Source: a virus. Taken from it: a stretch of 64,000 nucleotides of DNA. Numbering within the stretch: the first letter of the stretch is position 1; each line of letters begins with the position of its first letter. Position numbers and translations under genes: made by a program. The notes below the pieces were generated by a model. That model ran no database searches. It had not been told where the DNA came from and saw only the letters and a program-made list of their open reading frames with translations. Below, piece after piece: positions 37,009 to 63,960 of the stretch. The stretch covers positions 2,820 through 66,819 of the IMG/VR virus record IMGVR_UViG_3300004180_000001. The stretch is one strand, 5' to 3'.

Positions 37009-37027
37009 CTGTACTCACTGAGTACAG
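37009..37027. repeat. Palindrome copy 1, CTGTACTC-ACT-GAGTACAG
   Basis: Exact; flanks extend the stem (AGC/GCT). Confidence 0.95.
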
Positions 37028-37039
37028 GCTGTCCCCAAC

Positions 37040-37312
37040 TCAAGCTAAGTCTGAGTTGAGCTTCGCTCCCGCCTTAAACACCGCAGTGGTCTTGGCTGGG
37101 ATATCGATACGTTCGCCGGTAGCAGGGTTCCTGCCGGCTCTCGCTTTCGATTCTCTCACTTTGAAAGTGCCGAAGCCTTTCAAAGCTACTTCGTTGCCTG
37201 CTTTAAGCTCCTCGGCAACAACGGTTACCAAGGTCTCCACAACGTCTGTTGCAGAGGCCTTGGTAATTCCGCACGATGTAGCTATTTTTGTTACAAGTTC
37301 TGCTTTGTTCAT
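37040..37312 (-). CDS. hup: HU family histone-like DNA-binding protein
   Basis: MNKAELV...GFGTFKVRESKARAGRNPATGERIDIPA...FKAG. Confidence 0.95.
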   Translation of the reverse strand: MNKAELVTKIATSCGITKASATDVVETLVTVVAEELKAGNEVALKGFGTFKVRESKARAGRNPATGERIDIPAKTTAVFKAGAKLNSDLA

Positions 37313-37362
37313 TGTCTTTCCATTAAAGTCTTTACGAGAGTAAGACTTTAGCACAGACATTG

Positions 37363-38793
37363 CTATAGGTAAAGTGATTCTAATAAAACTTTTTTATCCT
37401 GCATTATATACGAAGTTTCCTTACTCCTGCCTAGCGCTGAGTCCACTAATCGGTCCATCCAGGTTCTCTCGAATCTGAACAGCCAGGCCTTTACAGGGTT
37501 GACTTGCCCCTCTCTCTGCACGCGCCCTAGTCCCTGCTCAAAACTGGAAGGCGTGCCTTCCGGTTCGAAAAAAATAACGTCGCTGCAAACGTGTTGCAGG
37601 TTAAACCCTGCGCCGCCTGATTTGTAATTGGCTATCGCCGCCCGGCAAGTAACGTCAGTCTGGAACTTGATAACTTCCTCCCTGCAGTTGGAGTCACCGT
37701 AGATCAACGCAGGGTTGTCGAACAGTTTGGCAAGCTTGCGAACCGTTGACCGGTAGACACAAAATATGAGTACCTTCCGCTCTCGGGTATTAATCGATTC
37801 CAGTATGGCTTTCAATGAGGCTATAGGCGCGTCGTCTATCACCTTATCGGTAAAATGCTCCATGTTGGTTATGATCTGCAAGGCGTACTGTCGTAACGCT
37901 GACATGTTGTCCGCCACAAACACCTGATCGCCCAGCTGCAGGATTCTTTCGGTGAGAAGCTTTTTGTACAGAACGTAGTGTTCAGGCTCCAGTAAAACTC
38001 TCTGCTCGATGATGGTAGGCTCTTCCAAGGACAACACGTCACGCTGCCTGCGCCGGACGGCGAACTCATTCATATCCATCATTAACGGTTCCCTGGATTG
38101 GTAGTCCACAATCTTGTCGAACGGCAAGAACTGGTTGTCGGCGTAGACGATGAACTGCCTTTTGAAATATTCCAGGTTGGGATATTTTTTAGGCTGACGC
38201 AGTTTGATGTGGGCGTAGGCATCCAACAGATCCGCGGTGATGGGCGTCGCCGTCATCTCATGGAAGTCGAAGTCCAGGTTAAACACAGCTCGGTAAGCCA
38301 CAGCGAAGTTGTTGGTGCTTGCACCTTTCAAGGCATGCGCCTCGTCGCACACCAAAACATTGAAGTGGCGCAGGCCGAACAGATACCGAGCCAGTCGGGC
38401 GAACATCTGATAGCTCATGAACGCCACGTCAGGCAAGTGCCCAGCGTCCCAGTGGTCCAGCATATTGTCACGCTTACCTTTCGGTATCGACACATTGACC
38501 ATCTTGAACGGCATGTCCGTAACGATGCGATTGAACTCCGTGATGTATTGGTGAATCAGCGGCGGCGGCATGACTACCAGCACTTTCTTGCCTGAATACA
38601 GCTTGTGTGCAATGTACAAGAACGATACCAGACTCTTACCGGTGCCCACCTCTGAGAAGTTGGCGCTTCGTTTCCAAGGCAGAATCTTACCAAGGTCCTC
38701 CAGTTGATGTGGCTTGGGAGTTTGCAGGCATTGGCTGGCGCCGCAGTCGATCGGCACACAGGCGTCTTCGAATATTTTGTTTAGGAGTATCAC
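37363..38793 (-). CDS. SNF2-like SF2 helicase
   Basis: EVGTGKS, DEAH, TATP, GGAGFNLQ and QGLGRVQREGQ; GTG start overlaps the upstream TGA. Confidence 0.85.
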   Translation of the reverse strand: MILLNKIFEDACVPIDCGASQCLQTPKPHQLEDLGKILPWKRSANFSEVGTGKSLVSFLYIAHKLYSGKKVLVVMPPPLIHQYITEFNRIVTDMPFKMVNVSIPKGKRDNMLDHWDAGHLPDVAFMSYQMFARLARYLFGLRHFNVLVCDEAHALKGASTNNFAVAYRAVFNLDFDFHEMTATPITADLLDAYAHIKLRQPKKYPNLEYFKRQFIVYADNQFLPFDKIVDYQSREPLMMDMNEFAVRRRQRDVLSLEEPTIIEQRVLLEPEHYVLYKKLLTERILQLGDQVFVADNMSALRQYALQIITNMEHFTDKVIDDAPIASLKAILESINTRERKVLIFCVYRSTVRKLAKLFDNPALIYGDSNCREEVIKFQTDVTCRAAIANYKSGGAGFNLQHVCSDVIFFEPEGTPSSFEQGLGRVQREGQVNPVKAWLFRFERTWMDRLVDSALGRSKETSYIMQDKKVLLESLYL

Positions 38794-38984
38794 ACAGGCC
38801 GCCACAAGCATTCCGTGGAGAGAATGTGCCGACCGTCATCCAACTTGATTATCATAAGACCTGGCTTTTCCGTATCCTCTCTAACAACAATACCTAACAG
38901 CGTCTCCATGGTGTCCTCGAAGCTGACCGCTACCTTGCTGTTGTAATATTCTTTTTGCAGCTTTCTTTTATTCGGTTTTTTCAT
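38790..38984 (-). CDS. Hypothetical protein
   Basis: Tiled; AAGGA RBS. Confidence 0.55.
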   Translation of the reverse strand: MKKPNKRKLQKEYYNSKVAVSFEDTMETLLGIVVREDTEKPGLMIIKLDDGRHILSTECLWRPV

Positions 38985-39211
38985 GGTGTTTCCTTTAGCA
39001 ATACTTTAATACGGCGATCGTGCAACTCAGCCAACTTCTCCTTGCCTACCTTCAACCGGCGCTCTTCGCTAAACATCAGCTCAGGGTAGCAGCAGCTAAA
39101 ATCAACACAGCATTCGTTATTACGGTGTTCCGGCTTTCCGTTCATCCACAGTAACGTTTGCTGGATGCAGTTGTCGATGTAGCTTAATTGCAAGTAGGCA
39201 GGGGTCACCAC
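38981..39211 (-). CDS. Hypothetical protein
   Basis: Tiled; ECCVDFSCCYP motif. Confidence 0.55.
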   Translation of the reverse strand: MVTPAYLQLSYIDNCIQQTLLWMNGKPEHRNNECCVDFSCCYPELMFSEERRLKVGKEKLAELHDRRIKVLLKETP

Positions 39212-39396
39212 GCCCTCAGTACAACTTCGACCCCACAGTTAGGGCAATCAATCCACTCCCGACCGTCCGACCCTCCAGAGTAATCTCTTCCGTGGTAGGA
39301 CTGAACTTCACTGGGTGTGTACTCTAATCGCTTGGCGCAGTTCCTACACACCACCTGTTTCACTGCTTCCGGCGCATCGCCGACAATCTTTACCAT
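39205..39396 (-). CDS. Zn-ribbon protein
   Basis: CRNC...CPNC. Confidence 0.6.
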   Translation of the reverse strand: MVKIVGDAPEAVKQVVCRNCAKRLEYTPSEVQSYHGRDYSGGSDGREWIDCPNCGVEVVLRAW

Positions 39397-39402
39397 TTGT
39401 GT

Positions 39403-39564
39403 TTACCTCTCCGGAGTTTCCACTTTATCAACATCGCCTTTCTGACCACAGTGAGGGCAGGTTAAGGCCAAAGTCACCAGCCAATCCCTTACTGACCACC
39501 ATTTTCGACAAACACCGCACTGGAAGTGGTGCAAGATTTCTATGGTGTGTTTATGGCTGACCAT
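39403..39564 (-). CDS. Zn-ribbon microprotein (53 aa, below the ORF-track cutoff)
   Basis: MVSHKHTIEILHHFQCGVCRKWWS...LTCPHCGQ; fills the gap between neighbours. Confidence 0.55.
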   Translation of the reverse strand: MVSHKHTIEILHHFQCGVCRKWWSVRDWLVTLALTCPHCGQKGDVDKVETPER

Positions 39565-39567
39565 TGG

Positions 39568-39747
39568 CTACACCCTCGTCCGATTCTTCAGATACCTCTC
39601 ATACCTTCTTGGGTCGTCGAAAGTGGGACGGTTATACCACCACTCCTGAAACGTTATACCGATGTTGGGCATGATTGGATTGGTTAGCCACAGGTAGTAA
39701 AACCCACCCACGAAAACTATTACTGTGCATAGTAATAAATTAATCAT
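39568..39747 (-). CDS. Small membrane protein
   Basis: Start MINLLL with GGAGG RBS; one TM segment. Confidence 0.5.
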   Translation of the reverse strand: MINLLLCTVIVFVGGFYYLWLTNPIMPNIGITFQEWWYNRPTFDDPRRYERYLKNRTRV

Positions 39748-40144
39748 CGCTACCTCCAGACAGAACATCATCACGGTGAAATTGCTCAACGTCGTCAACA
39801 GTCCAGAATTTAATCGGATAATTTTCATTGAGCCAGCCGCCTATCAAAGCCTTCAGCTCGTCCTTCTTAACCGTGTCTTTGGCCAAATCTTCAAGCCAGT
39901 CTTCGGATACTTCGCCGCACTCGTCGCCGGCTGCTTCTTGAAGTTCCTCTATGAAGCTGAGAATATTAACAAAGTCTACCGGCGTAACTTCTATGTTGCG
40001 GCCAACCCACACAGACTCTGCCGACGGATCATTGGCAAAACCCGACATAGCGGCGTCCTCAGGCGTGGGGTGGGACTCTTGATAAAACTCCTCGTTGTGG
40101 CTGTAGCTGTATTTTTCGTTACTCATGCGGGCCTCCGTCATCAA
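39740..40144 (-). CDS. Acidic hypothetical protein
   Basis: Tiled ORF (start possibly 40126). Confidence 0.6.
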   Translation of the reverse strand: MMTEARMSNEKYSYSHNEEFYQESHPTPEDAAMSGFANDPSAESVWVGRNIEVTPVDFVNILSFIEELQEAAGDECGEVSEDWLEDLAKDTVKKDELKALIGGWLNENYPIKFWTVDDVEQFHRDDVLSGGSDD

Positions 40145-40424
40145 GCATGCCGTTTCGGCGGGATAGTTTCATGTATTCCTGGACTCTCTTGCGTTTAACG
40201 TCCCGGATAAAGGGGTTTCCAGGCTTAGATAGGCCTTCCGATTGCCTGAGCATATCCATTATTGCCTGGGCCTCAGTGAATTCCTGGACAATGTCCTCGG
40301 CGTTGGTGGTTTTGTCTTTACGGTATTCCATTCCAAACCGAATAGCCTTACACGCGCTTTGTATAACCTCAGTGCACTCTTCGATAAGACACACCAAAAG
40401 GTAAACCGATCTACTTTTTATCAT
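40119..40424 (-). CDS. MazG-like nucleotide pyrophosphohydrolase fold protein
   Basis: LIEECTEVIQSACKAIRFG...IVQEFTE, an all-alpha EExxE...E motif. Confidence 0.5.
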   Translation of the reverse strand: MIKSRSVYLLVCLIEECTEVIQSACKAIRFGMEYRKDKTTNAEDIVQEFTEAQAIMDMLRQSEGLSKPGNPFIRDVKRKRVQEYMKLSRRNGMLDDGGPHE

Positions 40425-40950: not shown

Positions 40951-41283
40951 TTAAAAAGTTACTCTAGCATCTTCAGAAATTTCAAATGTCTGAAGACATT
41001 CGTCGCAAGTGCAGGATGTGCCTCTGGGATCGCCAGTGAAACCGTCCAGCGTAGCCTCGCAGTAAGGGCAATCGACTGATGCCATTCCCACTGCTATTGC
41101 TGAGCAGGTTAACGCCGGTGGAACATACATTGCCCTACCCGTAGCGTTGGCCGCTTTGACGAGCAGTCTCGATAAACTTAGGTCTATGATGATACTGTTC
41201 CTGTCTAATACCGAAACCATGTGGTGATTTGCTGCAACCTGCGCTTCAAGTGCTTTCTTCAAAAGTTCTGTTTGGTTTTCCAT
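40951..41283 (-). CDS. Hypothetical protein with a C-terminal Zn ribbon
   Basis: CPYC...CDEC. Confidence 0.55.
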   Translation of the reverse strand: MENQTELLKKALEAQVAANHHMVSVLDRNSIIIDLSLSRLLVKAANATGRAMYVPPALTCSAIAVGMASVDCPYCEATLDGFTGDPRGTSCTCDECLQTFEISEDARVTF

Positions 41284-44204: not shown

Positions 44205-44441
44205 TTAAAGAATAGCTTGCATTACGGTACTGGCATTAACCGACCCCATTACCTTAGCCAAGGCGTCAGACACAGGCACTGTTCGAACGGTACAAAGCTT
44301 GAGTGCTTGTCTGCATAATTCCGCATCGTCGCGCCTGCCTATTGATTGAAAATATTCCATGTACATTGCTACCGCCGATGGCCTGTAGTGCGCTACAACC
44401 GTCGGGGGCTGCTTCTGAACAAGGGTTATTACTTTTGCCAT
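44205..44441 (-). CDS. Hypothetical protein
   Basis: GAGGT RBS; tiled. Confidence 0.55.
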   Translation of the reverse strand: MAKVITLVQKQPPTVVAHYRPSAVAMYMEYFQSIGRRDDAELCRQALKLCTVRTVPVSDALAKVMGSVNASTVMQAIL

Positions 44442-44986
44442 ACCGACACCTCTAAATTTTCCAAGGCGCTTTTGATAGTTACTTCCAGTTCTTTAAGAGT
44501 TCCGTTGTTAAATACATACACGTCTCCATCGCCGTGTTTTATACCCGCTTCAGAGGCATGTTTAGCCATACCTCCAGCAAGGCCGGCTTGATACCTGTTT
44601 ATGTGAATAATTCCACCGCCCTCACTTCTTATCCAGTCTGCCTCGTCGTCGAATCGGACGTCGGAAAATACCACGGATTCCTCTGTTCGGAGGTATTGCC
44701 GGTACGACCGCTTAATCCAAAATTCAGGGTCCAGGTTATTTCTGATTAAATCCGTTCCCAGGAATTGCAGTATTTCCCTTGGCGACAAATGCCAATACGG
44801 GTCGGGTTTCTCTCGGTCGCCCTCGTCGAAACTGCTGCGCGGCATGTCGAACAAAACAGCGGCTGCATCTTTTAGTGGGTTGGCAAATGCCATTTGAATA
44901 AAACTGTGCTGCTGGCACAAGATGCCGGCAACGGTATCTTTTCCTGATCGGGCTATTCCGGTCAGGCCTATGAGTCTTTTCGCCAT
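44429..44986 (-). CDS. Deoxynucleoside monophosphate kinase
   Basis: IGLTGIARSGKDT, FANPLK, PREILQFLGT, SDVRF and HASE. Confidence 0.9.
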   Translation of the reverse strand: MAKRLIGLTGIARSGKDTVAGILCQQHSFIQMAFANPLKDAAAVLFDMPRSSFDEGDREKPDPYWHLSPREILQFLGTDLIRNNLDPEFWIKRSYRQYLRTEESVVFSDVRFDDEADWIRSEGGGIIHINRYQAGLAGGMAKHASEAGIKHGDGDVYVFNNGTLKELEVTIKSALENLEVSVWQK

Positions 44987-45009
44987 TTTATCTCCTTGAT
45001 GTTTATGAT

Positions 45010-45192
45010 TTATTTTTCTTCCGGTAACGGTATGAACGCTTGAGCCAACAAGACTTCATGCCGAACCCTACCCTCTTTAATTGACTCTCCTAACTTATCC
45101 TGGTCGATTACCAGACCCCAACCGTGCTTCCAGACGTGAGTGATAATGGCCGACTTGCCTACGAATTTTTCCGGTATGAACAATTTTTTCAT
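45010..45192 (-). CDS. Hypothetical protein
   Basis: ATGA overlap. Confidence 0.5.
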   Translation of the reverse strand: MKKLFIPEKFVGKSAIITHVWKHGWGLVIDQDKLGESIKEGRVRHEVLLAQAFIPLPEEK

Positions 45193-46483: not shown

Positions 46484-46502
46484 CTGTACTCAGTGAGTAC
46501 AG
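46484..46502. repeat. Palindrome copy 2 (AGT centre)
   Basis: Exact; extends to 46478-46508 (CGGCTT/AAGCCG). Confidence 0.95.
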
Positions 46503-46819: not shown

Positions 46820-47081
46820 GTTTAAGCTCCAGGTTGGTTTTGAATTCTTCGTACATTGCAGGGTGCATGATAAGACCCTCTCGGGTCTCGTACACGGTTC
46901 GCATGGGTTTGGACGATATAACGCTGATCTCTTTTGTTTTAACCCACGGTTTAAAAGACAGAAATCTTTCAAGCCAGGGTATTTTTACAGTAATTTTTGT
47001 TTCTACAGGTTCCTCAAGAAAGGGGTTTAAGTAAATTCGCTTGCCTTGAAGAGTTTGTAAAATATTGACTTCATTGACCAT
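46803..47081 (-). CDS. Hypothetical protein
   Basis: GGAGG RBS; tiled. Confidence 0.55.
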   Translation of the reverse strand: MVNEVNILQTLQGKRIYLNPFLEEPVETKITVKIPWLERFLSFKPWVKTKEISVISSKPMRTVYETREGLIMHPAMYEEFKTNLELKHDTNE

Positions 47082-47475
47082 CTTTCAAATCCTCCAAGGT
47101 TTTTGTTAAAGCTTCGATTAAAGGCTCCGGGTCTTGATCTACCGCCAGTAAATCCCAAGGGCCGGGATCACCTCCTGGACATACCCAGCTATCTGTAGCG
47201 CACGGTCTGCCTAGATGTTCCCTAAGTGGGCAGTCTCTGCATTGCTTTTTAACAGCCGTACAGAGAGGGTCAAACACACTTCGCAAAGCAGGGATAAAGT
47301 CGGCTGGACCCGTACCTACCAAGCTACATCTTCTTTGTATAAGTCCATGCTTTATTAAGTTTTCCTTGCGGAAACCTTTGAAAAAGGCCAGAGACGCCGC
47401 TGTAGCTTCAATTACATCGGCGCCTTCGCCAGGCATTTCAGGCAAAAATTCTTTCAGCCAAGTCTCTGTGGTCAT
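47071..47475 (-). CDS. Cys-rich hypothetical protein
   Basis: Restart at MTTETW (ATGA overlap); LC...CRDCPL...C. Confidence 0.55.
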   Translation of the reverse strand: MTTETWLKEFLPEMPGEGADVIEATAASLAFFKGFRKENLIKHGLIQRRCSLVGTGPADFIPALRSVFDPLCTAVKKQCRDCPLREHLGRPCATDSWVCPGGDPGPWDLLAVDQDPEPLIEALTKTLEDLKDGQ

Positions 47476-49285: not shown

Positions 49286-49304
49286 CTGTACTCAGTGAGT
49301 ACAG
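49286..49304. repeat. Palindrome copy 3 (AGT)
   Basis: Exact; supplies the stop codon of the upstream ORF. Confidence 0.95.
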
Positions 49305-49697: not shown

Positions 49698-50657
49698 TTA
49701 AGCGGTCAACAACTCGAACGCTTTGTTTTTTAAAGTTTCCCCAATACCGAACCAGGCTGAGCTGAGTCTGGTTTTTTCAGAGCCGCGTTCATGATCGACG
49801 TTTTGCGTGATGACGTTCATCATGCGCCACCTGGTAAAGCCGCCGTCAATGTCGCTTCCGATCAAACCTTTGCCATGGTACAGGTCCAGGATGTTTGAAT
49901 AGCCTGCCAACGCTCTCAAGTCTTTCTCTTCAGTAATGCTGGGCCTCATGTGCGCCATCATCTTCAAAGCAAAGTTTTCCGCTTCGGCTTCAACCAGTGG
50001 TGTTGCCGCCATTTCCTTAACTTTTTCCATCCAGCGTTGGTAGACTTCCGTGACAATGCCAAGCTCGTCTCGCATTTTATCCGCGCTGAATTGCATGTTA
50101 TGGGGCACCTTAACCTGGTGTCCGCCTTCGCGCAGCGACATTGTCAGCGTATTGTTGCAGACGACCCGCACCGATGTAAACCGGGCCAGTGTGGCCATAG
50201 TTCCATCGAAAGAAGTGGCCATCAACACGTAAGGCTTTACAACGTCCTGACCGATAACAGGGGCGCCGTCGCTGACCTTGGCCAGGCCCCATACCCGTCT
50301 CCCGCCGTCCAGTACGCCGGCCACTTCCAGGTCAAAGCCGCCAAGTTTGCACAGCTCGTCAAAAAAGTTGAGAACCTGGCTGGGCTGCACCAATTTGTAA
50401 TCCTTAGACACGATGGACAGCGGTGCGTTATTGTCGCTACGGTACAGCGCTTTCCTGGCCGGGAATTGAATGGCGTCCGTCTTGTTGGCCATGTAATAAA
50501 CATCGCTTTCCAGTACGTCGAAATCCATGCCGGACTCGACTCGCCAGGTTTCGATAGGCTGGCCGGGCGTCAGGAGTTGACCTGATTTGTGCCAAGGGGT
50601 TTGTCCGACGTAAGCGATAGACGCCTTGCCGTTTTTTGAATCTAATAAACTTGCCAT
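49698..50657 (-). CDS. DUF932 (TIGR03299-like) phage/plasmid protein
   Basis: AYVGQTPWH, YRSD..APLSIVS..Y..VQP, TSFDG and RVVCNNTL. Confidence 0.8.
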   Translation of the reverse strand: MASLLDSKNGKASIAYVGQTPWHKSGQLLTPGQPIETWRVESGMDFDVLESDVYYMANKTDAIQFPARKALYRSDNNAPLSIVSKDYKLVQPSQVLNFFDELCKLGGFDLEVAGVLDGGRRVWGLAKVSDGAPVIGQDVVKPYVLMATSFDGTMATLARFTSVRVVCNNTLTMSLREGGHQVKVPHNMQFSADKMRDELGIVTEVYQRWMEKVKEMAATPLVEAEAENFALKMMAHMRPSITEEKDLRALAGYSNILDLYHGKGLIGSDIDGGFTRWRMMNVITQNVDHERGSEKTRLSSAWFGIGETLKNKAFELLTA

Positions 50658-50692
50658 GATGATCTACTCCGTAAAATATTAATGAAATTAAG

Positions 50693-50870
50693 AATTGGAT
50701 GCGACAGCAACCGATACCTAAAGCGTAAGGAGGGGCGCAAATGGGTAACGCCGTATAAACGCTCTAGCAAGCCAATGGGATACCGGTCCTGCGGCCTCGG
50801 GGGTTGTTTCGATCCAAGTCACTCGCCCGAAATACACTTGTCCGCCCTTATTAACCTCAGCGGCTGAGGT
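50693..50870 (-). ncRNA. Candidate pseudoknotted structured RNA, copy B
   Basis: Homologous architecture to 48804-48960 with compensatory changes. Confidence 0.65.
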
Positions 50871-50877
50871 AGCACTG

Positions 50878-51255
50878 TTATCTGTTAAGTAGTTTCTTTT
50901 TAACTTTCTGTTTGTATGCAAACACGTCCAAAGTACAGTTACCTCCAAAGCTAACCCTGTCTCGCGCACCTGACTCTATCAGGTCGGCTGCTTCTTTGCA
51001 GTAATCCAGAAAATATTGCCCCGCTTCAATGTCGGTTTTCTTTCGTTCTTGAATAACTACCGAAACACCGGTAACCTCGTTAATGCAGGATACTTTGTAA
51101 TTTTTAACCGCCAGTATCTTAGCGGTCCTTAAGGCATGTAACCCGGCTTGTCTTTCCAGATTCAGCTGTAGGCAGTCATCAGTAACTACCCCGTTTATCT
51201 CTAGGGTAAGGTCGCCATCGTCCAGGTCTATGTCGATACTGATGAGATCAGTCAT
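50878..51255 (-). CDS. Hypothetical protein
   Basis: ATGA overlap. Confidence 0.55.
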   Translation of the reverse strand: MTDLISIDIDLDDGDLTLEINGVVTDDCLQLNLERQAGLHALRTAKILAVKNYKVSCINEVTGVSVVIQERKKTDIEAGQYFLDYCKEAADLIESGARDRVSFGGNCTLDVFAYKQKVKKKLLNR

Positions 51256-52140: not shown

Positions 52141-52182
52141 AAGGCCTCCAAAAAGATGTGTTATTGTAAATTACACTTGGCA

Positions 52183-52725
52183 TTATGTCAAGTGGTGAAG
52201 AGAGGGGCCGGGGTCTGTGTTGCTGTATTTTCCAACTGCGCTGAACGTATAGCTTAACCCTGATTCAGGAAAATTTACCGCGACAGGGTATGCTTCGTTA
52301 GCGCATATCTCTTCGACTACGCCGTTTAAAGACTTTAATCCCGTATCCCTTACGTAGGTCGGTATGTTAACGTGGAGTATGTTTTCATCGAGGACCCAAA
52401 CAACTTTATCTCCCACTTTAAACCTACGGTTACCTAAAAACTCTCTAGCGGCTTTCACCGCGGATTCGGCTTCCTCGCAGATAAACCAGCCGCCGTCTTT
52501 GTCGGGTTGGATAGCGTTTAGAAGATTCCGTAAAACGTCAGCAGGCGAGGACTCGACTTCCTTCAGGTCTACTGTAAAAGTTACGTCCGCTTCGGTGTCT
52601 AAGACTTCGAACACAAGCGCAGTGCTTTCGGGGTCTCGCTGTATTTCCAAAGCCGATTCAGCCGCTTCTGTCGGAGACTCGGCGTCCAGGGAAATTTCCC
52701 AGGTGACGCGATATTCTTTGGTCAT
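52183..52725 (-). CDS. Multi-module hypothetical protein
   Basis: GGAG RBS; YRVTWEISLDAESPTEAA N-terminal module. Confidence 0.6.
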   Translation of the reverse strand: MTKEYRVTWEISLDAESPTEAAESALEIQRDPESTALVFEVLDTEADVTFTVDLKEVESSPADVLRNLLNAIQPDKDGGWFICEEAESAVKAAREFLGNRRFKVGDKVVWVLDENILHVNIPTYVRDTGLKSLNGVVEEICANEAYPVAVNFPESGLSYTFSAVGKYSNTDPGPSLHHLT

Positions 52726-53102: not shown

Positions 53103-53121
53103 CTGTACTCAGTGAGTACAG
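53103..53121. repeat. Palindrome copy 4 (AGT)
   Basis: Exact. Confidence 0.95.
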
Positions 53122-53133: not shown

Positions 53134-53832
53134 TTATTTAGGCTGTTGGGCGACAACAATATTGAGTTTAGCTAAAACCTCGGATAAGGTTGTGGCCGTA
53201 GTTGTGTGCAATTCCTGGGAGATATTTTTAGCTATTCCCCGTTCTGCTTCGGTAATAATCGATATTGCCATGCGGTCTCTTTCACACGCCTTTTCATAAT
53301 CGTGTAAGTCCACACGTTGCACAATCCACTTCAGCTCGAAGCCGGTAATTTCAGGTTCTTCGTCAACTTGAACCACTTCAACGCAGGCAGGGCTGTTGTT
53401 CGCGATGACGACCACGAAGTCGCCTTCTTTCAATAGGCCGATCGGCGCCTTGTAAGTCATGACGCTGGTCGATGATTTGAATTTAACTTTTACTGTGGTG
53501 TAGCCTTCTTGAAGCAAGGTCAGGATTTGGCGTAAGTTGTTTTTGCTCATGTTCTTTTTCTCGGGTTGGTTTGACGGTACTTGAAAAGCTTCTGCTGTTA
53601 TTTTGTTTACTACCTCTATAAATTCTTTGTACTGGTTAATGGCAAAAGACTCGGCGGTTTCTCTGTTATTGAAAAAGTGCGTATTTTGGTAACACATTGA
53701 GTCTCCGCAATAAAGACAGTATTCCTTTGCCTGGTTTTGTTCTACTCTGAGAAAGTTGTGACGGCACACCGGGCAGCCTACTCTTGCCATTCTGCCGTCA
53801 GGCAGCTTGAACAGGTCATTGCTCATTTTCAC
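53134..53832 (-). CDS. Hypothetical protein (Zn-finger N-terminus fused to a second module)
   Basis: CPVC...CLYCGDSMC; second module begins near MSKNNLRQ. Confidence 0.6.
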   Translation of the reverse strand: MKMSNDLFKLPDGRMARVGCPVCRHNFLRVEQNQAKEYCLYCGDSMCYQNTHFFNNRETAESFAINQYKEFIEVVNKITAEAFQVPSNQPEKKNMSKNNLRQILTLLQEGYTTVKVKFKSSTSVMTYKAPIGLLKEGDFVVVIANNSPACVEVVQVDEEPEITGFELKWIVQRVDLHDYEKACERDRMAISIITEAERGIAKNISQELHTTTATTLSEVLAKLNIVVAQQPK

Positions 53833-54370
53833 TCTCCTTCTTCAAAAGAAATTCCAACGCCTCGTTACCCTCTTGTTGGGCGTGCTCTTCTCCGATAAAC
53901 CCGTAGCAACCTTCGACGAATTCGTCGTTGTCATAGATCTCATAGCCGTAAGTTTCGCCATTCATCCATAACCCGAATTCTTTAACTTCGGATTTAAGGC
54001 AGTCTACGACCTGCCTTAAAGCTGCCGGAGTCAGTTTCTTTTTACCCAACATATCGGCAACAATTTCCCGAGTGGTATAAATGAAACCCAGCTGCCCTGA
54101 GTCCCAGCTGTCGTTGAACGGCGTGGTTCGCAATGCAGTACCGCTGTGGTCATACATATAAACAGGAAGAATGGCACAGGCTTTATGCTTTTTTACCAGG
54201 TGTTGCTGCATTTCCTCCCAACCATTAAAGTCGCCAGACTTTATTCGGGGGTCAGTTTCATTGGGCACAGTGTGGCGGCTGTTAAACAAGGCCATTCTGC
54301 CGACGTTGCAGTCAAAGCTGCGAGGGCTTTCACAGTCTTCATCGGGTACTATTTCTAATTTTAAGGTCAT
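53816..54370 (-). CDS. Acidic mobile-element-type hypothetical protein
   Basis: LPVYMYDHSG...WDSGQLGFIY...GETYGY...CYGFIG. Confidence 0.65.
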   Translation of the reverse strand: MTLKLEIVPDEDCESPRSFDCNVGRMALFNSRHTVPNETDPRIKSGDFNGWEEMQQHLVKKHKACAILPVYMYDHSGTALRTTPFNDSWDSGQLGFIYTTREIVADMLGKKKLTPAALRQVVDCLKSEVKEFGLWMNGETYGYEIYDNDEFVEGCYGFIGEEHAQQEGNEALEFLLKKESENEQ

Positions 54371-54381: not shown

Positions 54382-54400
54382 CTGTACTCAGCGAGTACAG
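54382..54400. repeat. Palindrome copy 5 (AGC)
   Basis: Arms exact; fused to the AAGGA RBS. Confidence 0.95.
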
Positions 54401-55849: not shown

Positions 55850-55868
55850 CTGTACTCAGTGAGTACAG
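55850..55868. repeat. Palindrome copy 6 (AGT)
   Basis: Exact. Confidence 0.95.
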
Positions 55869-57552: not shown

Positions 57553-57571
57553 CTGTACTCGCTGAGTACAG
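57553..57571. repeat. Palindrome copy 7 (GCT)
   Basis: Exact reverse complement of copy 5; fused to the RBS. Confidence 0.95.
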
Positions 57572-57962: not shown

Positions 57963-58766
57963 CTATCTCCCAAGGTAATTGAACGTCCCGGGTGGTGTAA
58001 TGCACTCGACAGGGTAAGGAAAATCAGCCACCCTCAATTTTTTCAGAAAAATATCAGCGGCGTCCGTGCTTATTGGTTTTTGCCAGCCAAAGCAAAAGAC
58101 ATTTTTACCAGCGTAGAAAATAGCGTTGTAAGCCGGCAGACCTAAAGCCGCCATACGTTTATAACCGTCGTATTTTATGTTGGACAGCCGAGTTTCTTTT
58201 TCAAAATCCTGGTTGATTTTGTTTAGGAATTTTTCCAGTTTAACGGCGTTGAGACGAGTCTGAGCCTCCAACCAACGTTGCCGGACTTGCTCAAACACTT
58301 CGGGCGGCAGTTTCCGTTTCGGGTTGGCTAACGCAGCGGGTTTCAACTGCAACAGGTTAAGATTGGATTCTTCCAAATACTCGCTGCCGAGGCAAGCCGT
58401 GCAGTATGAAATATCGGTAGGATATTTTGCTCCGCAATATCCGCAAACGTAGGTATTTTGTCTAACGTCAATCATCTCCTTAGATATGTCAAGGTAATGC
58501 CCTATCTTGTGATTGCGGTTTCTCGGGTTGATGTCTTCGTACCAGTCGAACACCCGGCCTCCCGGCGTGGCGTTCCACTGATTGCTGTTAATGAAACTGG
58601 TATCCAGCTCAATTTCCGTCGGTTCATTAGGGATGAAATGCCGTGTGCCGATACAGTCGAACAGTTTGGCCCGGCCAGGAGTGGCTTTCAACTTCTCGCG
58701 GAGAATTGTGTAAGCCACTATGTCATCCGGCAGGTGAAAATTATAACCGTAAATTGTTGTTTTCAT
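57963..58766 (-). CDS. Hypothetical protein with a Zn ribbon
   Basis: CGYCG...CTAC; RBS abuts palindrome copy 8. Confidence 0.65.
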   Translation of the reverse strand: MKTTIYGYNFHLPDDIVAYTILREKLKATPGRAKLFDCIGTRHFIPNEPTEIELDTSFINSNQWNATPGGRVFDWYEDINPRNRNHKIGHYLDISKEMIDVRQNTYVCGYCGAKYPTDISYCTACLGSEYLEESNLNLLQLKPAALANPKRKLPPEVFEQVRQRWLEAQTRLNAVKLEKFLNKINQDFEKETRLSNIKYDGYKRMAALGLPAYNAIFYAGKNVFCFGWQKPISTDAADIFLKKLRVADFPYPVECITPPGTFNYLGR

Positions 58767-58778
58767 TGTAGTTTCCTT

Positions 58779-58797
58779 CTGTACTCAGTGAGTACAG
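58779..58797. repeat. Palindrome copy 8 (AGT)
   Basis: Exact; fused to the RBS. Confidence 0.95.
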
Positions 58798-58834
58798 GAT
58801 TAGTTAAAATTGTGAAACAATTTTCAAAGTAAAT

Positions 58835-59287
58835 TTATTCCCAGACTACCGTTCCGGAAAGTTGAAACATCTGGCCTTCTCTAAATTCCCAGCGGTAAAG
58901 ACAGCCATCCTCACCTTCCCAGTTGATGAAACCGCCTGATTCAATATAGGGCGCCAGCACTTCAAAGAAATGGTTTTCGTCGCCTGATTTAGAGTCGTAG
59001 TCTTCCACGGTAAGGAAGTTGTCTTCCAGATAGACTCCAAAACCTAATGTGCTCAAAACAGATTTAACTGATTTACAAGACTCGTGGTAATTCCAATCCA
59101 TCCAGGAAAACCAAACAAATTCATTGGGTTGGTCTTCCGGCAATCCTTCAGGTTTGGGATACCGACCGCCACTTTTTAAGTGGTTTTGGTTGTTAAGTTC
59201 GACCAAAGCTTCGTAAGCCTTAGCTTGCGTATCGGCATCCAACGAAATTTTTACCGTTGAACGTGTTATTTGTGTGTTGTATCCCAT
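58835..59287 (-). CDS. Hypothetical protein
   Basis: GGAG RBS; LAPYIESGGFINWEGEDG motif. Confidence 0.65.
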   Translation of the reverse strand: MGYNTQITRSTVKISLDADTQAKAYEALVELNNQNHLKSGGRYPKPEGLPEDQPNEFVWFSWMDWNYHESCKSVKSVLSTLGFGVYLEDNFLTVEDYDSKSGDENHFFEVLAPYIESGGFINWEGEDGCLYRWEFREGQMFQLSGTVVWE

Positions 59288-59300
59288 GTTTATTCTCCGA

Positions 59301-60053
59301 TTAATTGTTAATTACCAGCCAGTCGGCGTAGCCGAGTTCAGTATCGTTATTGTTGATTTGGTATTTCCAGTCGTCGCGGCGATCCTTAACGGATTTGACA
59401 AAGTCAGGGATATTGCCTTCCAAACAGGCTTTGAGTTGCAAGGCGGTGTCCGACTTTAGCAAGTTGAGGGCTTGTTTCAGGTTGCTGGCTTGCATGGCTT
59501 GTTTCAGGTTGCTGGCTTGCAGGTCTCTTCGGTAATAGCCTGTTGCATAACTTGTGTGCCGGTCTACGATACCTTGCCAGTTACTGTTCAGTAAACAGCT
59601 CAAAGGGCAGTAAACCGAGTTATTGGTTAAGCCTTTCGATTCCGGTATGTTCAGGTAGATTTCGTAGTCGTTTGAAATAGATGAGTCGTAGATACTGAAC
59701 TTGAAATGCTTAGCCCAAGGCAAAGACTGTTCCAGCAGGTATTTAACCAACTTGGCGAATGTCTGTGTTTGGTACGGCGCCTGCACTCGGCAGAGAAAAC
59801 CAAGGGTACTGACGTAACCTGCAATAGATTGCCCTGCAAAACCGTGCGGCGTAGCCTGCGCTATGACGGATACTTTCCCGGTTCGAAGGATTTCGTAAAC
59901 TTGTAGGCATTTCGGTTCATCCTCGAACCCTTTTTCCTCGGATACGTCGCTCAGCTTAATGTCGAGATCGACGATAGCCTGTTTTAACTGGTCTTCCGTC
60001 CAGTAATGAAGGAAGAATTTCCGGTTACGCAGGTATTTGAGTATTTTTTCCAT
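59301..60053 (-). CDS. Hypothetical protein
   Basis: GAGG RBS; 250 aa. Confidence 0.65.
   Translation of the reverse strand: MEKILKYLRNRKFFLHYWTEDQLKQAIVDLDIKLSDVSEEKGFEDEPKCLQVYEILRTGKVSVIAQATPHGFAGQSIAGYVSTLGFLCRVQAPYQTQTFAKLVKYLLEQSLPWAKHFKFSIYDSSISNDYEIYLNIPESKGLTNNSVYCPLSCLLNSNWQGIVDRHTSYATGYYRRDLQASNLKQAMQASNLKQALNLLKSDTALQLKACLEGNIPDFVKSVKDRRDDWKYQINNNDTELGYADWLVINN
59469..59521. repeat. 27-bp in-frame tandem duplication
   Basis: GGCTTGTTTCAGGTTGCTGGCTTGCA twice (QASNLKQA x2). Confidence 0.9.
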
Positions 60054-60479: not shown

Positions 60480-60498
60480 CTGTACTCAGTGAGTACAG
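60480..60498. repeat. Palindrome copy 9 (AGT)
   Basis: Exact; fused to the RBS. Confidence 0.95.
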
Positions 60499-60925: not shown

Positions 60926-61101
60926 AAGTTGGCCTCGCAATAATCATCCAATTCAGTAACAAGTCCGTCGAAGTCTTCCGATGGGCCTAGTAGGGATGCC
61001 ATCATAAAGACGACATTGGCTTCAACGCCATGTTCGTCGGCCAGGTTTTGCAGGTAGTCTCTGCGGTTATCGAATCCGTTTTCTTGGTAGATGTTAGGCA
61101 T
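60922..61101 (-). CDS. Acidic microprotein (59 aa, below the ORF-track cutoff)
   Basis: MPNIYQENGFDNRRDYLQNLADEHGV...LLGPSEDFDGLVTELDDYCEANL*. Confidence 0.6.
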   Translation of the reverse strand: MPNIYQENGFDNRRDYLQNLADEHGVEANVVFMMASLLGPSEDFDGLVTELDDYCEANL

Positions 61102-61228
61102 GGTTAATACTCGGTAGAGTTTAATTCGGAACGTGTCTTTCTGGCTAATTCAGGGCGCACAGAGACACGGATGGGTATTGGGACCGGTAACCGGGTCGGT
61201 AAAAGGAAAAGACGGCGTAGTAGTGTGA

Positions 61229-61429
61229 TCATTGTGGATTCTCCGGAGGTAGGTAATAAGGTTTCAGGTGTGGTTGTTTGGTTTTAATGTTTTGCAGGTA
61301 GGTGAGAGCGTCTGATTGGTTGGTGAAACGAGATACAACCTGCATTACGCCTTCTTCAACTACAGTGTGTTTGGTCGCATGGTACAAGATTACAGGGTTT
61401 TGTTGTTGATGCCAGGACATAGTGGGCAT
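61229..61429 (-). CDS. Hypothetical protein
   Basis: 66-aa ORF downstream of the 8-bp tandem repeat. Confidence 0.5.
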   Translation of the reverse strand: MPTMSWHQQQNPVILYHATKHTVVEEGVMQVVSRFTNQSDALTYLQNIKTKQPHLKPYYLPPENPQ

Positions 61430-61432
61430 AGT

Positions 61433-61480
61433 GGGTTGGAGGGTTGGTGGGTTGGTGGGTTGGTGGGTTGGTGGGTTGGT
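61433..61480. repeat. (GGGTTGGT)6 tandem repeat
   Basis: Six 8-bp units, the first ending in A. Confidence 0.95.
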
Positions 61481-61486
61481 ATCCTT

Positions 61487-61505
61487 CTGTACTCAGTGAG
61501 TACAG
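61487..61505. repeat. Palindrome copy 10 (AGT)
   Basis: Exact. Confidence 0.95.
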
Positions 61506-61678
61506 GATTTGGGAGTTGGGAGTTGATGCAAAATTGCAGGTTAAATTGGGCCACGGAGTGGGTTTAGTTTGGCTTTTCGGTAAAAACTACCGCAATGGTT
61601 GCGGAAAAGGGCATTTTGCCACTGAGCCTGAGGCGATAGGGTCCCCCCCTAATTTTATAGAGTGGGTATTTTAAGGGA

Positions 61679-61723
61679 TTTTTGCTCGACAACTTAGAAC
61701 ACCTCTAAGTTGTCGAGCAAAAA
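61679..61723. repeat. Perfect 20-bp inverted repeat with a 5-nt loop (bidirectional terminator- or cruciform-like)
   Basis: TTTTTGCTCGACAACTTAGA-ACACC-TCTAAGTTGTCGAGCAAAAA. Confidence 0.9.
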
Positions 61724-62230
61724 AAACGGAATTATTCGAAAAATGGTTTAAGAAAGTGTACAAATGAAATGGATGACCCCCATTAAAAAAAAAAAAAATT
61801 TTTTAAACCTTTTTTTTTTTTAAATACCTCTTAACCCAAATCTTAACTTTCGCCGTTCGGCCCTTTTCCTGACTTCTTGAGATTCGCCATCCGATGCCGT
61901 AAACCCCTACAGCTGTGTACACTAACACCCCAGGTTCAGTTTTTTTTTTTTTCTCTTAGAAAAAAAATAGTCGGCTGAGTTTTTTTTGTTAGAGTAAAAA
62001 ATGAACTTAGGTCGCCCGAAAGTTAAATTTTTTTTTTGTCGGCTGAGTAAATGCGTTAATGTCCATTAGAGAACTCTAATATGATTTTTGACCTGCATAA
62101 AAAAATCATAATTGCAACCCCCCGTACTCGCAGTGTAATTTCGTCTTTTAGCCAGAGTTTTGCCGTTAATTATCCTGAGCAACATGTTAGATACTCTTTA
62201 AGATCGCCAAGACGGTTGTAGGGTTTAGCC

Positions 62231-62239
62231 TGTGGATAA
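62231..62239 (-). promoter_or_regulatory. Consensus DnaA box (TTATCCACA)
   Basis: TGTGGATAA on the + strand; single copy. Confidence 0.35.
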
Positions 62240-62398
62240 GTCGATTTTAACAAATTAGACGTCCATAGCCCCATTTGAATATACTTAAATACTAATATAT
62301 CTTGTCATTGACCCAGTTAAAAATCGTACAATAATTGGTCAATTTAACATAATTACGCCAAGTGAATCGCTGGAGCCCGCGTCGTAGCTGGTAACTCT

Positions 62399-62614
62399 AA
62401 ACAATGGGTTTGGCCGTTAGGAAAATCGCCTAAAATACCAGGTATAACGCAAAGTAAATACACGGTATTGACAAAGTTAAATTTTTATGAAACAGGCAAG
62501 TTTTACTTAAATTTCAGTAACTTATGTAAATTTGCCGAAAAGCTGACTTTTTGCTCATTATCGGCGATAGGCCAACGTTTATAAGCAATTCCAAACAATG
62601 GGTTTGGCCGTTAG
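62399..62614. repeat. 22-bp direct repeat pair
   Basis: AAACAATGGGTTTGGCCGTTAG at 62399-62420 and 62593-62614. Confidence 0.9.
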
Positions 62615-62757
62615 AGTTTTTTACGCCAAGTGATTGTCTGTTTTTGCGTTTTTGTACAAAACAGGACAAAAATGGCCAAAATTAAAATAAATAAAATCCG
62701 TTAGAGTCGGTTTTAACAGGGCTATCAACCAAGTGATTGATTGATAGCTAAGAAAGC

Positions 62758-62776
62758 CTGTACTCAGTGAGTACAG
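62758..62776. repeat. Palindrome copy 11 (AGT)
   Basis: Exact. Confidence 0.95.
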
Positions 62777-62802
62777 AAACAATGTATTTTTTCCGTTAAA
62801 AG

Positions 62803-63303
62803 TTAGGCAGGTTCGACGATATAACCGAAACTTGCCAGTAACAGCAGGTTAGCTACCGAAACCTTTGCCAAGCACGTCGATCCGATCGGGCGTTTCCCGG
62901 CTTTCCGTATGTTGAATTTCACTTCCGTAATGTCCAAATCTTCCGTCAACTTGATAGCCTCAAGGTGGTTTAATAAGGACGCTTCACAAGGGTTTATGTA
63001 GCTTTGGTGGTGGTCGTAGACGGCCAGGTAGTATCTCTCGCCCCATTTTTCAGCACGTAGGCGAAGTTTGCCGATTTCAAACGCCGTGTAGACGGCGATT
63101 AGCACGTCACCGGCAGGATTGTTGCTGGTCTTTTCAAGGAACAAACCAAACAAATCGCAGTTTGTCGGAGGATCTAGGGATGGGTTGCAAGCCAATACCA
63201 AGTCTCTGGTGACGTGTCGGATGTGTAGCGCCTGGGCTTGCCCCTTTTGCCACAGTTTGAACAGAGTGCTCAGGTCGGTTGCTTTGAAGAATTTTGTTTT
63301 CAT
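62803..63303 (-). CDS. Hypothetical protein
   Basis: AAGGA RBS; bracketed by palindromes 11 and 12. Confidence 0.6.
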   Translation of the reverse strand: MKTKFFKATDLSTLFKLWQKGQAQALHIRHVTRDLVLACNPSLDPPTNCDLFGLFLEKTSNNPAGDVLIAVYTAFEIGKLRLRAEKWGERYYLAVYDHHQSYINPCEASLLNHLEAIKLTEDLDITEVKFNIRKAGKRPIGSTCLAKVSVANLLLLASFGYIVEPA

Positions 63304-63330
63304 GGTGTTTCCTTTTTCGGTTGTGGGATT

Positions 63331-63349
63331 CTGTACTCACTGAGTACAG
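63331..63349. repeat. Palindrome copy 12 (ACT)
   Basis: Exact; extends GGATT/AATCC. Confidence 0.95.
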
Positions 63350-63368
63350 AATCCGGGGGAGGTTGTGA

Positions 63369-63557
63369 TTAGATTAAAACGTAACCGCCGTTCTCACGAC
63401 TCAGTTGGTTTTCCAGTTGCGTAAGACGCCTGCAAGCTTGTAGGTGAACTACACGCAGACCTGCCCTGGTCTTGCCCTCTGTTTTCTTTATCTCGGTCTC
63501 TAGGCGCTCGATTTGCAGTTCGACGCGCTCTATTTGTTCAATGATTGGTATAAACAT
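63369..63557 (-). CDS. Small coiled-coil hypothetical protein
   Basis: AAGGA RBS; bracketed by palindromes 12 and 13. Confidence 0.55.
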   Translation of the reverse strand: MFIPIIEQIERVELQIERLETEIKKTEGKTRAGLRVVHLQACRRLTQLENQLSRENGGYVLI

Positions 63558-63594
63558 GACTGCTATTCCTTTTAGGTTGGTTGGTGGGTTGATC

Positions 63595-63613
63595 CTGTAC
63601 TCACTGAGTACAG
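63595..63613. repeat. Palindrome copy 13 (ACT)
   Basis: Exact; extends ATC/GAT. Confidence 0.95.
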
Positions 63614-63626
63614 GATTTTTACTGGG

Positions 63627-63866
63627 TTAAATCTCGTCTGGTGGGAAACCCTCGGCCCACAGCGCAGCTTCAATAGGACAGACGTAAGTTTCCGAAACAT
63701 CGTCCCAAATAAGGTCGAAGGTTTTCTCTACTTTATCCTCGTCTCGAATGATTGAGATTTGGGCGGGCGTAATTGTCCCGACCATAATGAGAACGTCTGT
63801 GCGTTCTCGAATTGGTCTGGTTTTTAACCCGACTGCGCTGATTTGATAAGTACAAAAAATTGCCAT
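63627..63866 (-). CDS. Hypothetical protein
   Basis: AAGGA RBS; bracketed by palindromes 13 and 14. Confidence 0.55.
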   Translation of the reverse strand: MAIFCTYQISAVGLKTRPIRERTDVLIMVGTITPAQISIIRDEDKVEKTFDLIWDDVSETYVCPIEAALWAEGFPPDEI

Positions 63867-63941
63867 GAAAAAATCCTTGGCCCACGAAGGCCGGTTGGTT
63901 TTGAAATTCGAGGCCCGGAATTTTGGTCTCGCGTTTTTAAT

Positions 63942-63960
63942 CTGTACTCAATGAGTACAG
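63942..63960. repeat. Palindrome copy 14 (AAT)
   Basis: Arms exact. Confidence 0.95.

Follow-up and report, generated by a model that had tools for sequence, protein, structure and literature searches.

A letter-perfect palindrome at fourteen gene junctions of a siphovirus, with lineage-specific counterparts in distant relatives: a candidate operator for early and replication genes

What purpose is served by one short palindrome that recurs, with both arms letter-perfect, at gene junction after gene junction in the early region of a phage genome? The question is raised by IMG/VR record IMGVR_UViG_3300004180_000001, a linear contig of 66,819 bases, rated 85% complete, which is that of a siphovirus and of which bases 2820-66819 (the window, 64 kb in full, to which positions below refer unless another source is named) were analysed. 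The element concerned is the 19-mer CTGTACTC-N3-GAGTACAG, with 14 exact matches in the window. The comparisons described below give a chance somewhat short of even that this 19-mer is an operator on duplex DNA, through which a dimeric regulator specific to the lineage controls early and replication genes, and a role as an RNA hairpin stays a live rival.

The count itself is robust. The pattern has 0 matches in 100 dinucleotide-preserving shuffles, and the reversed pattern has 0 in the contig. With up to three mismatches permitted, 15 matches are found against 0.14 expected, the sole addition being a chance-like match at 8551, so that the family is all-or-none, without degenerate members. An initial annotation, made from the letters alone, had placed 14 palindromes to the right of 37 kb and none to the left; the exact scan reproduced every position (Table 1), returned 0 exact copies in positions 1-37 kb, and, when widened to the entire contig as that annotation had proposed, added no copy to the window's 14. 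A metagenome contig of the same phage (L075, 99.95% identity over 2,110 bases), which reaches 1,613 bases beyond the right end of the window, holds no additional copy there. The annotated loop tally (AGT eight times, ACT three times, AGC, GCT and AAT once each) is right on the plus strand. The minus strand carries all genes from 19.7 to 64 kb, from which it follows that transcription runs from right to left and that the tally inverts in gene sense, to ACT eight times, AGT three times, and GCT, AGC and ATT once each.

Placement relative to genes is equally strict. When genes are listed by hand on the minus strand, all 14 copies fall between them, against an intergenic share of 15.5% in 36956-64000 (P about 5e-12), in agreement with the early impression that every copy lies at a gene junction; a crude longest-open-reading-frame caller puts 9 of the 14 outside open reading frames (ORFs), a lower figure because it accepts spurious opposite-strand ORFs and over-long starts. 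The single genes 62803-63303, 63369-63557 and 63627-63866 are each flanked by copies, as had also been remarked. Six copies form a first class (Table 1), in which AAGGA or AAAGGA follows 0-1 nucleotides (nt) after the motif and the ATG lies 11-13 nt past it in five cases, and a further five form a second class, in which the preceding stop codon is 11-19 nt away and the next start follows at 20-84 nt. Apart from AAGGAAC, present at five to six sites, no asymmetric box is conserved alongside the palindrome. Copies lie densely over the first 10 kb of transcription, become sparser towards the replication genes, and end before the polymerase gene.

Conservation in close relatives argues that the exact letters matter. 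A scan of JGI metagenomes, with the centre limited to C or G, yielded contigs of two relatives, among which L068 and L069 share 64-78% nucleotide identity with window 62.0-64.0 kb and L080 shares 71-76% with 57.2-58.8 kb; megablast of 8 kb against GenBank phages found no close DNA relatives, and a single-protein locus search of IMG/VR found no relatives. The 19-mer is letter-perfect at the orthologs of 63942 and 63595 (both conserved in L068), 63331, and 58779 and 57553 (both conserved in L080). At the 63331 site, L068 and L069 carry a tandem triplication of a 55-56-nt unit comprising motif, leader and Shine-Dalgarno sequence, so that seven of seven copies in the relatives are exact (five orthologous and two extra tandem). 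One orthologous site is without the motif: at the place of 62758, L069 has an unrelated imperfect hairpin instead. The centre base varies between orthologs, 57553 for example reading AGC in the window and ACT in L080. The persistence of exact 19-mers amid flanks that are only 64-78% identical points to purifying selection on the sequence and not to recent copying.

The pattern of constraint within the element bears directly upon whether it would be read as DNA or as RNA. All 16 arm positions are fixed in the 14 window copies and the seven copies of the relatives. The centre base is free (in gene sense C nine times, G four times, T once), and the bases beside it are A and T in 12 of the 14 copies, so that the symmetry extends to a single central base, which a hairpin could not use. 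Every copy has a pyrimidine at position -1 and a purine at position +20 (A nine times, G five times), a rule of Y...R flanks that the seven copies of the relatives obey as well; the two positions could nonetheless pair in only 7 of the 14, where column frequencies predict 6.7, and the next pair outward in 9, where they predict 7.4. With complementarity so near the column expectation, the flanks are conserved per half-site and not as a base pair. Across five genomes (the distant ones are introduced below) there are no compensatory double changes in the stem, variants being confined to the innermost and outermost positions. Several of these features speak for a reader that has two-fold symmetry and recognises duplex DNA.

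The more distant relatives carry palindromes of other sequence. The set compared comprises G001 (81,686 bases, with terminal repeats) and G002 (82,741 bases), together with three GenBank relatives, the Vibrio phages SHOU24 and 51E28.4 and the Pseudomonas phage Lana. A 942-amino-acid (aa) archaeo-eukaryotic-type primase-helicase is kept in all genomes compared, its homologs ranging from 70% down to 24% identity (41% in G001, 28% in G002 and about 25% in the GenBank relatives). The 19-mer of the window is not a repeat in G001 or G002, and a blind scan for over-represented gapped palindromes, with expectations drawn from dinucleotide shuffles, returned palindromes of their own: TTTGT-N4-ACAAA in G001 (22 copies, 0.15 expected), GTGTAA-N4-TTACAC in G002 (10 copies, 0 expected) and TTGGTC-N3-GACCAA in SHOU24 (13 copies, 0 expected), the last being present also in 51E28.4 in 38 copies (a count without a shuffle expectation), 32 of them perfect 15-mers. 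Lana has no such palindrome, any palindrome with 5-base-pair (bp) arms reaching at most five copies. A lineage palindrome is therefore present in five of the six genomes examined, the window included. Most copies in the relatives lie 10-60 nt before a start codon that bears a Shine-Dalgarno sequence, often touching it, an adjacency seen in SHOU24, 51E28.4 and G001. In 51E28.4, as read from the listing of copies, a preceding C always goes with a following A and never with G. A search of the literature on conserved phage palindromes, SHOU24 and Vibrio crassostreae phages (supplementary files excluded) found no description of these palindromes.

The palindromes, although different in sequence, stand before homologous genes. 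The 184-aa gene 53816-54370 (minus strand) is the sole early gene common to the window, G001 (50302-51243) and G002 (27097-27798), and in each it lies behind that phage's own palindrome. The window, G001, SHOU24 and 51E28.4 likewise have a palindrome adjoining the 288-aa gene that neighbours the polymerase gene, and in the last three it stands between the homolog of that gene and the polymerase gene. The 184-aa protein was weighed as the reader of the site since a palindrome precedes its gene in three lineages, and was set aside as it has no DNA-binding features; the family shares the blocks LP-x-Y-x-YDHSG and WDSG-x-x-G and has no known domain. At three sigma-70-like promoters of G001 a palindrome lies either within the spacer or 9-20 nt ahead of the -35 element.

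The model that we tentatively prefer may be set out as follows. The 19-mer would be the core of a symmetric duplex site of 21-23 bp, Y-CTGTACTC-A-N-T-GAGTACAG-R, bound by a homodimeric, sequence-specific DNA-binding protein that is probably phage-encoded and diverges fast between lineages. The sites, placed in the transcribed leaders and inter-gene gaps of early and replication genes, for the most part no more than 85 nt from the start codon, would allow binding to switch the whole gene set together, and the simplest action would be blocking or road-blocking of the host RNA polymerase once the regulator accumulates. Each part of this proposal (a protein as reader, DNA and not RNA as target, phage origin, repression) is inferred from comparison of sequences. 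An operator array for a dimeric phage protein was the first of three options in the initial annotation, and it is the one favoured here in view of the symmetry, the flanks, the lack of compensatory changes and the lineage-specific palindromes; no binding protein has been found to accompany it.

That last point heads a list of observations that weigh against such an operator. Among the ORFs of the window, scanned against Pfam, PHROGs and NCBIfam in a contig that is 85% complete, no helix-turn-helix, ribbon-helix-helix or ParB-like match was found, the sole DNA-binding family match being an HU-like protein, a non-specific binder. BLAST and phmmer comparisons disclosed no small protein common to the palindrome-bearing genomes yet absent from Lana, and ESM Atlas look-ups of two small basic proteins (78 and 67 aa) were uninformative. 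The 62 early-region proteins of G001, G002 and SHOU24 contained no DNA-binding family in Pfam, three that GenBank labels as regulators included. No copy among the 14 has a sigma-70-like promoter within 200 nt upstream (threshold at least 9 of 12-13 matches), which leaves road-blocking, or action on unrecognised promoters, as the way in which the sites would work. The phage looks lytic, with no lysogeny genes seen in the contig, and dispersed operators are best known from temperate phages and plasmids. The remaining objections concern the hairpin that the palindrome could form, and are most usefully considered together with the rival to which they lend weight.

That rival holds that an RNA hairpin of 8 bp with a 3-nt loop, lying in leader or inter-cistronic RNA, is read by a phage-specific RNA-binding protein or endoribonuclease, and would define where processed 5' or 3' ends fall, make the message more stable, or govern access of the ribosome to the Shine-Dalgarno sequence. 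We consider it unlikely to be the principal explanation, although several features speak for it. The tight linkage to Shine-Dalgarno sequences, with 6 of the 14 copies 0-1 nt before one, would suit a role in translation at the RNA level as well as it suits an operator, and the variable centre of 3-4 nt in all four palindrome types corresponds to the minimal loop size of a hairpin. The stem measures 8 bp in seven copies, 9 bp in three and 11-14 bp in four, the last having been extended by 3, 3, 5 and 6 bp; a naive binomial estimate for these four is P 5e-5, which rises by hand estimate to roughly 0.02-0.05 once the symmetric flank consensus is allowed for. The extended stems belong to copies 11-19 nt behind stop codons, positions suited to a hairpin that protects a 3' end, and whereas the core RNA hairpin is predicted at -10.5 kcal/mol (copy 6), extended copies reach -21.5 (copy 3) and -27 kcal/mol (copy 13), with z about -5. 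At two orthologous sites a relative keeps a stem extension of different sequence (that at 63595 being a different 2-bp extension), a persistence that looks like selection for a hairpin, and the substitution of an unrelated hairpin for the motif at the 62758 site could be read in the same way.

However, protein recognition of RNA hairpins usually shows the reverse of a fixed stem with a free loop, and here the 16 stem positions are invariant and the loop centre is free. The lack of compensatory stem variation in any genome and the chance-level pairing of the -1 and +20 flanks are likewise difficult to reconcile with an RNA structure. The G001 palindrome makes a weak RNA hairpin, formed in the minimum-free-energy fold of one of two segments folded, and the 51-nt segments that contain it are predicted to be no more stable than their shuffles (z -1.6 and -1.1). 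No Rfam family matched at gathering thresholds, and the family scans found no RNase or RNA-binding family. Cleavage by RNase III, which needs about 20 bp of double-stranded RNA, was rejected as an explanation in view of the 8-bp stems of half the copies and the longest of only 11-14 bp. Nor is an intrinsic terminator a suitable candidate, as 13 of the 14 copies have no U-tract on the gene strand and only that at 62758 scored as terminator-like.

Could the palindrome instead be the promoter itself? Promoter-like sites number 18 in 46-64 kb against 19.7 in shuffles. When the copies are aligned, upstream information is found only at -5 to -1 (AAAT, then C or T), and the 38 copies of 51E28.4 show none beyond -1. 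A promoter of fixed geometry was rejected on the missing promoter matches and this want of upstream conservation. A related alternative is that an extruded DNA hairpin or cruciform, or a single-stranded DNA fold, is the start signal for a phage enzyme, whether as an N4-like promoter or as an initiation site for the primase-helicase. The phage N4 early promoters for the virion RNA polymerase consist of inverted repeats around a centre at -11 (Lenneman and Rothman-Denes, 2015; PMC4496689, in the available text), and resemble the present element in being short, upstream of early genes and able to form a stem with a 3-nt loop, a geometry that an 8-bp stem and 3-nt loop would fit. They differ in that the purine at the loop centre and the bases through +1 are conserved and a giant virion polymerase is required, and in that the available text describes three of them at the genome end against 14-38 copies here (PMC4496689). 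In the window, part of a contig rated 85% complete, no RNA polymerase or sigma factor family was detected among the ORFs, and none of the 21 unassigned ORFs of at least 250 aa in the complete G001 matches an RNA polymerase family; the loop centre on the template strand is a purine in 10 of 14 copies, that is, not conserved. The hairpin promoter of N4 type that the initial annotation had offered as a second option is not supported as it was put, given the want of a polymerase gene, of a conserved loop centre and of upstream elements.

The initiation variant of this alternative draws on the conservation of the primase-helicase in all genomes compared, on the purine that is always the first base past the motif, and on the spacing of neighbouring copies in the early region, mostly about 1.0-1.7 kb. 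Lana, however, has the primase yet no palindrome, and copies shun coding DNA and hug start codons, neither of which a priming signal would need. A start signal read from extruded DNA is in our judgement improbable, and the same low standing is given to the more specific proposal that the lineage-specific palindromes of this group of roughly 80-kb siphoviruses are a programmable hairpin start signal, read in extruded form by, for example, the primase-helicase. To our knowledge, hairpin start signals of such a kind are restricted to the N4 promoters and the single-strand initiation sites of plasmids.

A further possibility is that the host supplies the reader, for instance a global regulator or a nucleoid protein, with palindromes differing as hosts differ. 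It would accommodate the failure to find a phage-encoded binder, as well as the identity of the palindrome in SHOU24 and 51E28.4, which infect different Vibrio species and whose primases and polymerases are 69% and 73% identical. Against it, an exact scan of 185,579 representative genomes (one per species, 596 Gb) found the 19-mer at 44 scattered places, including terminators, five matches to a longer repeat family in two Actinomycetota metagenome-assembled genomes and loci shared by related genomes; save for such unrelated repeat families it is not repeated there, and none of the 44 has flanks like those of the window, though degenerate host sites would escape an exact scan. A host REP/BIME-type repeat or host operator was rejected on the ground that the motif is not repeated in the representative genomes, the window's host not being identified. 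We assign a host reader only a small chance of being correct. A motif scan of IMG/VR gave six single-copy loci, which were taken as chance matches, and the single-copy metagenome loci L070, L072-L074, L076-L079 and L081 were set aside as probably unrelated, with no tblastn match at E of at most 1e-5 to any phage proteome compared; L070, L074, L076 and L079 have one conserved locus in common.

The third option of the initial annotation was that the copies are chiefly recombination joints for the gain, loss and shuffling of early genes, after the manner of the PeSL elements of T4-type phages. Comparison of gene content between copies, which that annotation had called for, uncovered one replacement. 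Between the orthologs of 60468-60118 and 58766-57963, L080 has an unrelated ORF of about 60 aa in place of the window genes 60053-59301 and 59287-58835, and the downstream boundary of this replacement is copy 58779, whereas the upstream boundary is a gene end without the motif. Joins between non-adjacent copies, likewise looked for, are represented by one contig of run X3, in which the flank of the 53103 copy (53123) is joined in inverted orientation to that of the 37009 copy (37006-36977) over 22 shared bases. This join of copies 16 kb apart could be a real recombinant or an artefact of template switching at the palindrome; a second chimera of the same run joins 63315 to 38997 with no motif involved, so that chimeric joins also arise away from the motif. 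The copy missing at the 62758 site of L069 and the triplicated unit at 63331 add a little to the case. However, the contigs of four DNA runs are of one strain throughout and show no indels or joints, copies stay unchanged at orthologous sites between conserved genes, and recombination alone would leave the symmetric flank rule and the placement at ribosome-binding sites unexplained.

The PeSL elements are similar in being short intergenic stem-loop motifs among small early genes of a plastic region (PMC2839356 and PMC4122927, in the available texts), and dissimilar in being defined, there, by a strong sigma-70-like promoter together with a terminator stem-loop (Arbiol et al., 2010, PMC2839356; Comeau et al., 2014, PMC4122927), both of which are missing here. 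The plasticity observed seems about what intergenic regions would show anyway and does not mark the motif as its driver, and the likelihood that the copies are chiefly recombination joints is accordingly put at very slim. Two further observations concern the plasticity of the region. In runs X5 and X7, contigs exit the phage at 62689 with an identical foreign continuation and one enters at 62650, and a variant or another element may have part of the non-coding region near 62650-62689. Metagenome contig L071 is 100% identical to window 58066-59371 and then diverges (L071 1307-1499, against window 58066) within gene 58766-57963, not at a palindrome, reflecting either a variant C-terminus or a chimeric contig.

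The closest known architecture is that of the start-associated sequences (SAS) and extended SAS (ESAS) of Cluster K mycobacteriophages, and the closest known logic that of plasmid RK2, with its global palindromic operators. The OB sites of RK2 number about a dozen, and their centre base varies. As described in the available text of McLean et al. (2025, PMC11790492), the RK2 operators (OB of KorB and OA of KorA) are, as here, many copies of one perfect palindrome on one replicon, which are read by dimers and silence sets of genes jointly, some sites being far from promoters. KorB is there a plasmid-encoded, CTP-dependent clamp of the ParB family (PMC11790492), whereas no ParB-like family was detected here, and the present sites, unlike those of RK2, hug ribosome-binding sites.

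The SAS/ESAS repeats, the function of which is also unknown according to the available text of Pope et al. (2011, PMC3203893), are found, like the present palindrome, only in the non-structural half of the genome and are tied to translation starts; ESAS is likewise an inverted repeat that immediately precedes the ribosome-binding region, sub-lineages differ in their consensus, and the element is kept before homologous genes (PMC3203893). In that description, however, ESAS consists of imperfect 17-bp inverted repeats with a variable 4-13-bp spacer, and Cluster K has in addition a separate asymmetric 13-bp SAS 3-8 nt before start codons (PMC3203893), whereas the arms here are perfect over 8-9 bp, the spacer is fixed, and the phage group and host are different. 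The stoperators of Cluster A mycobacteriophages (PMC9283540) and the conserved inverted repeats (CIRs) of Streptomyces phage phiC31 offer a parallel in logic as well, in the form of dozens of near-identical repressor sites in short intergenic gaps that stop transcription genome-wide. Stoperators, however, are asymmetric 13-bp sites read by a monomer, and both systems serve immunity in temperate phages.

Table 1. The 14 copies of the 19-mer in order of transcription (right to left, minus strand), with their loops in gene sense and their surroundings.
Copy	Position	Loop	Class	Preceding side	Following side	Stem extension and remarks
1	63942..63960	ATT			75 nt before ATG of 79-aa gene 63866-63627	first in transcription direction
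2	63595..63613	AGT	second	13 nt past stop codon	37 nt before ATG of 62-aa gene	3 bp (ATC/GAT)
3	63331..63349	AGT	second	19 nt past stop codon	27 nt before ATG of 166-aa gene	5 bp (GGATT/AATCC)
4	62758..62776	ACT		26 nt past stop of gene 62803-63303	heads non-coding stretch of ~1.3 kb	closes three-gene block
5	61487..61505	ACT	first		AAGGATA and (CAACCCAC)n leader; 57 nt before ATG at 61429
6	60480..60498	ACT	first		touches Shine-Dalgarno AAGGAAC; ATG of gene 60468-60118 11 nt beyond motif
7	58779..58797	ACT	first		touches Shine-Dalgarno; ATG of gene 58766-57963 12 nt beyond motif
8	57553..57571	AGC	first	1 nt past stop of 67-aa gene	touches Shine-Dalgarno; ATG 12 nt on
9	55850..55868	ACT	first	49 nt upstream very A+T-rich	AAAGGA; ATG 13 nt beyond motif
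10	54382..54400	GCT	first		touches Shine-Dalgarno; ATG of 184-aa gene 54370-53816 11 nt on
11	53103..53121	ACT	second	12 nt past stop codon	20 nt before ATG of gene 53082-52789
12	49286..49304	ACT			32 nt before ATG of gene 49253-48975
13	46484..46502	ACT	second	11 nt past stop codon	84 nt before next ATG	6 bp
14	37009..37027	AGT	second	12 nt past stop of HU-like gene 37360-37040	53 nt before ATG of conserved 288-aa gene preceding DNA polymerase gene	3 bp; last in transcription direction

The surroundings of individual copies have features of their own. Past the window end, the sequence upstream of copy 1 contains two terminator-like hairpins along with a T-run and a tract of alternating CG; at window 63961-64000 (L075 1560-1653), just upstream of this copy, 9-10 T are followed by about 17 nt of alternating CG/CA, which is prone to form Z-DNA, and the T-run and CG/CA tract are kept in relative L068 as well. 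Where the ATG is not adjacent, C/A-rich unstructured leaders lie between palindrome and Shine-Dalgarno sequence (61430-61486, 63558-63594 and 63304-63330), one of them being five tandem CAACCCAC units, and a relative has similar ACCAACC leaders. Between copies 4 and 5, positions 61506-62757 (minus strand, about 1.25 kb) hold no convincing ORF and contain iteron-like repeats (CTCTAACGG then CAAACCCATTGTTT, three times, and CACTTGGCGTAA, twice), long runs of A and T, and a strong hairpin at about 61690-61725; parts of this stretch are conserved at 78-91% in relative L069, and it may be an origin or a regulatory hub. The sole near-consensus sigma-70 promoter of the early region (52163-52191, minus strand, TTGACA-17 nt-TACAAT) stands directly before gene 52140-51811, with no palindrome near.

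Beyond the copies, the genome is organised in two parts. Tail genes occupy the plus strand at 1.6-19.7 kb, among them a tape-measure gene of 1,999 aa and the tandem paralogues 2771-3991 (406 aa) and 3996-5213 (405 aa), both of which match PHROG 9998. On the minus strand, 45-64 kb holds some 40 small genes almost without family matches, and leftward from about 45 kb follow a deoxynucleotide kinase, the primase-helicase, an SNF2-type helicase and the HU-like protein, further on a family-A DNA polymerase fused to a 5'-3' exonuclease, a Dda-like helicase and dUTPase, and further still thymidylate synthase, DHFR and SbcCD-like nucleases. A search for tRNAs found 0.

Two near-identical modules of G001 (41126-41270 and 47052-47180; L015 1090-1275 and 7015-7185) display another arrangement, in the order strong extended -10 promoter, terminator-like hairpin with T-run, AATAATCACTT, palindrome, Shine-Dalgarno sequence and gene, and the position of the terminator between promoter and gene suggests attenuation or anti-termination. 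Behind palindromes in G001, gene 44265-45188 and its neighbours include an ArdC-like anti-restriction protein with a zincin peptidase domain, and window 49698-50657 encodes a DUF932/TIGR03299 protein; proteins of both kinds are typical of plasmid leading regions.

If it is true that one factor reads these sites, the clade, whose members include Vibrio phage isolates as well as many uncultured relatives from freshwater and the sea, would possess a compact global switch for its early genes, and in G001 the genes under this putative switch would include that for the ArdC-like anti-restriction protein. The specificity of the switch would have been re-set repeatedly in evolution, so that the lineages would offer naturally matched pairs of site and reader from which a new family of DNA- or RNA-recognition proteins might be found. 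The all-or-none invariance of the sites (14 of 14 exact in the window, 32 of 38 perfect in 51E28.4) is unusual for transcription-factor sites and makes the system experimentally clean, and the isolated phages SHOU24 and 51E28.4 make it directly testable. The palindromes may, in addition, provide short orthogonal control elements for phage engineering.

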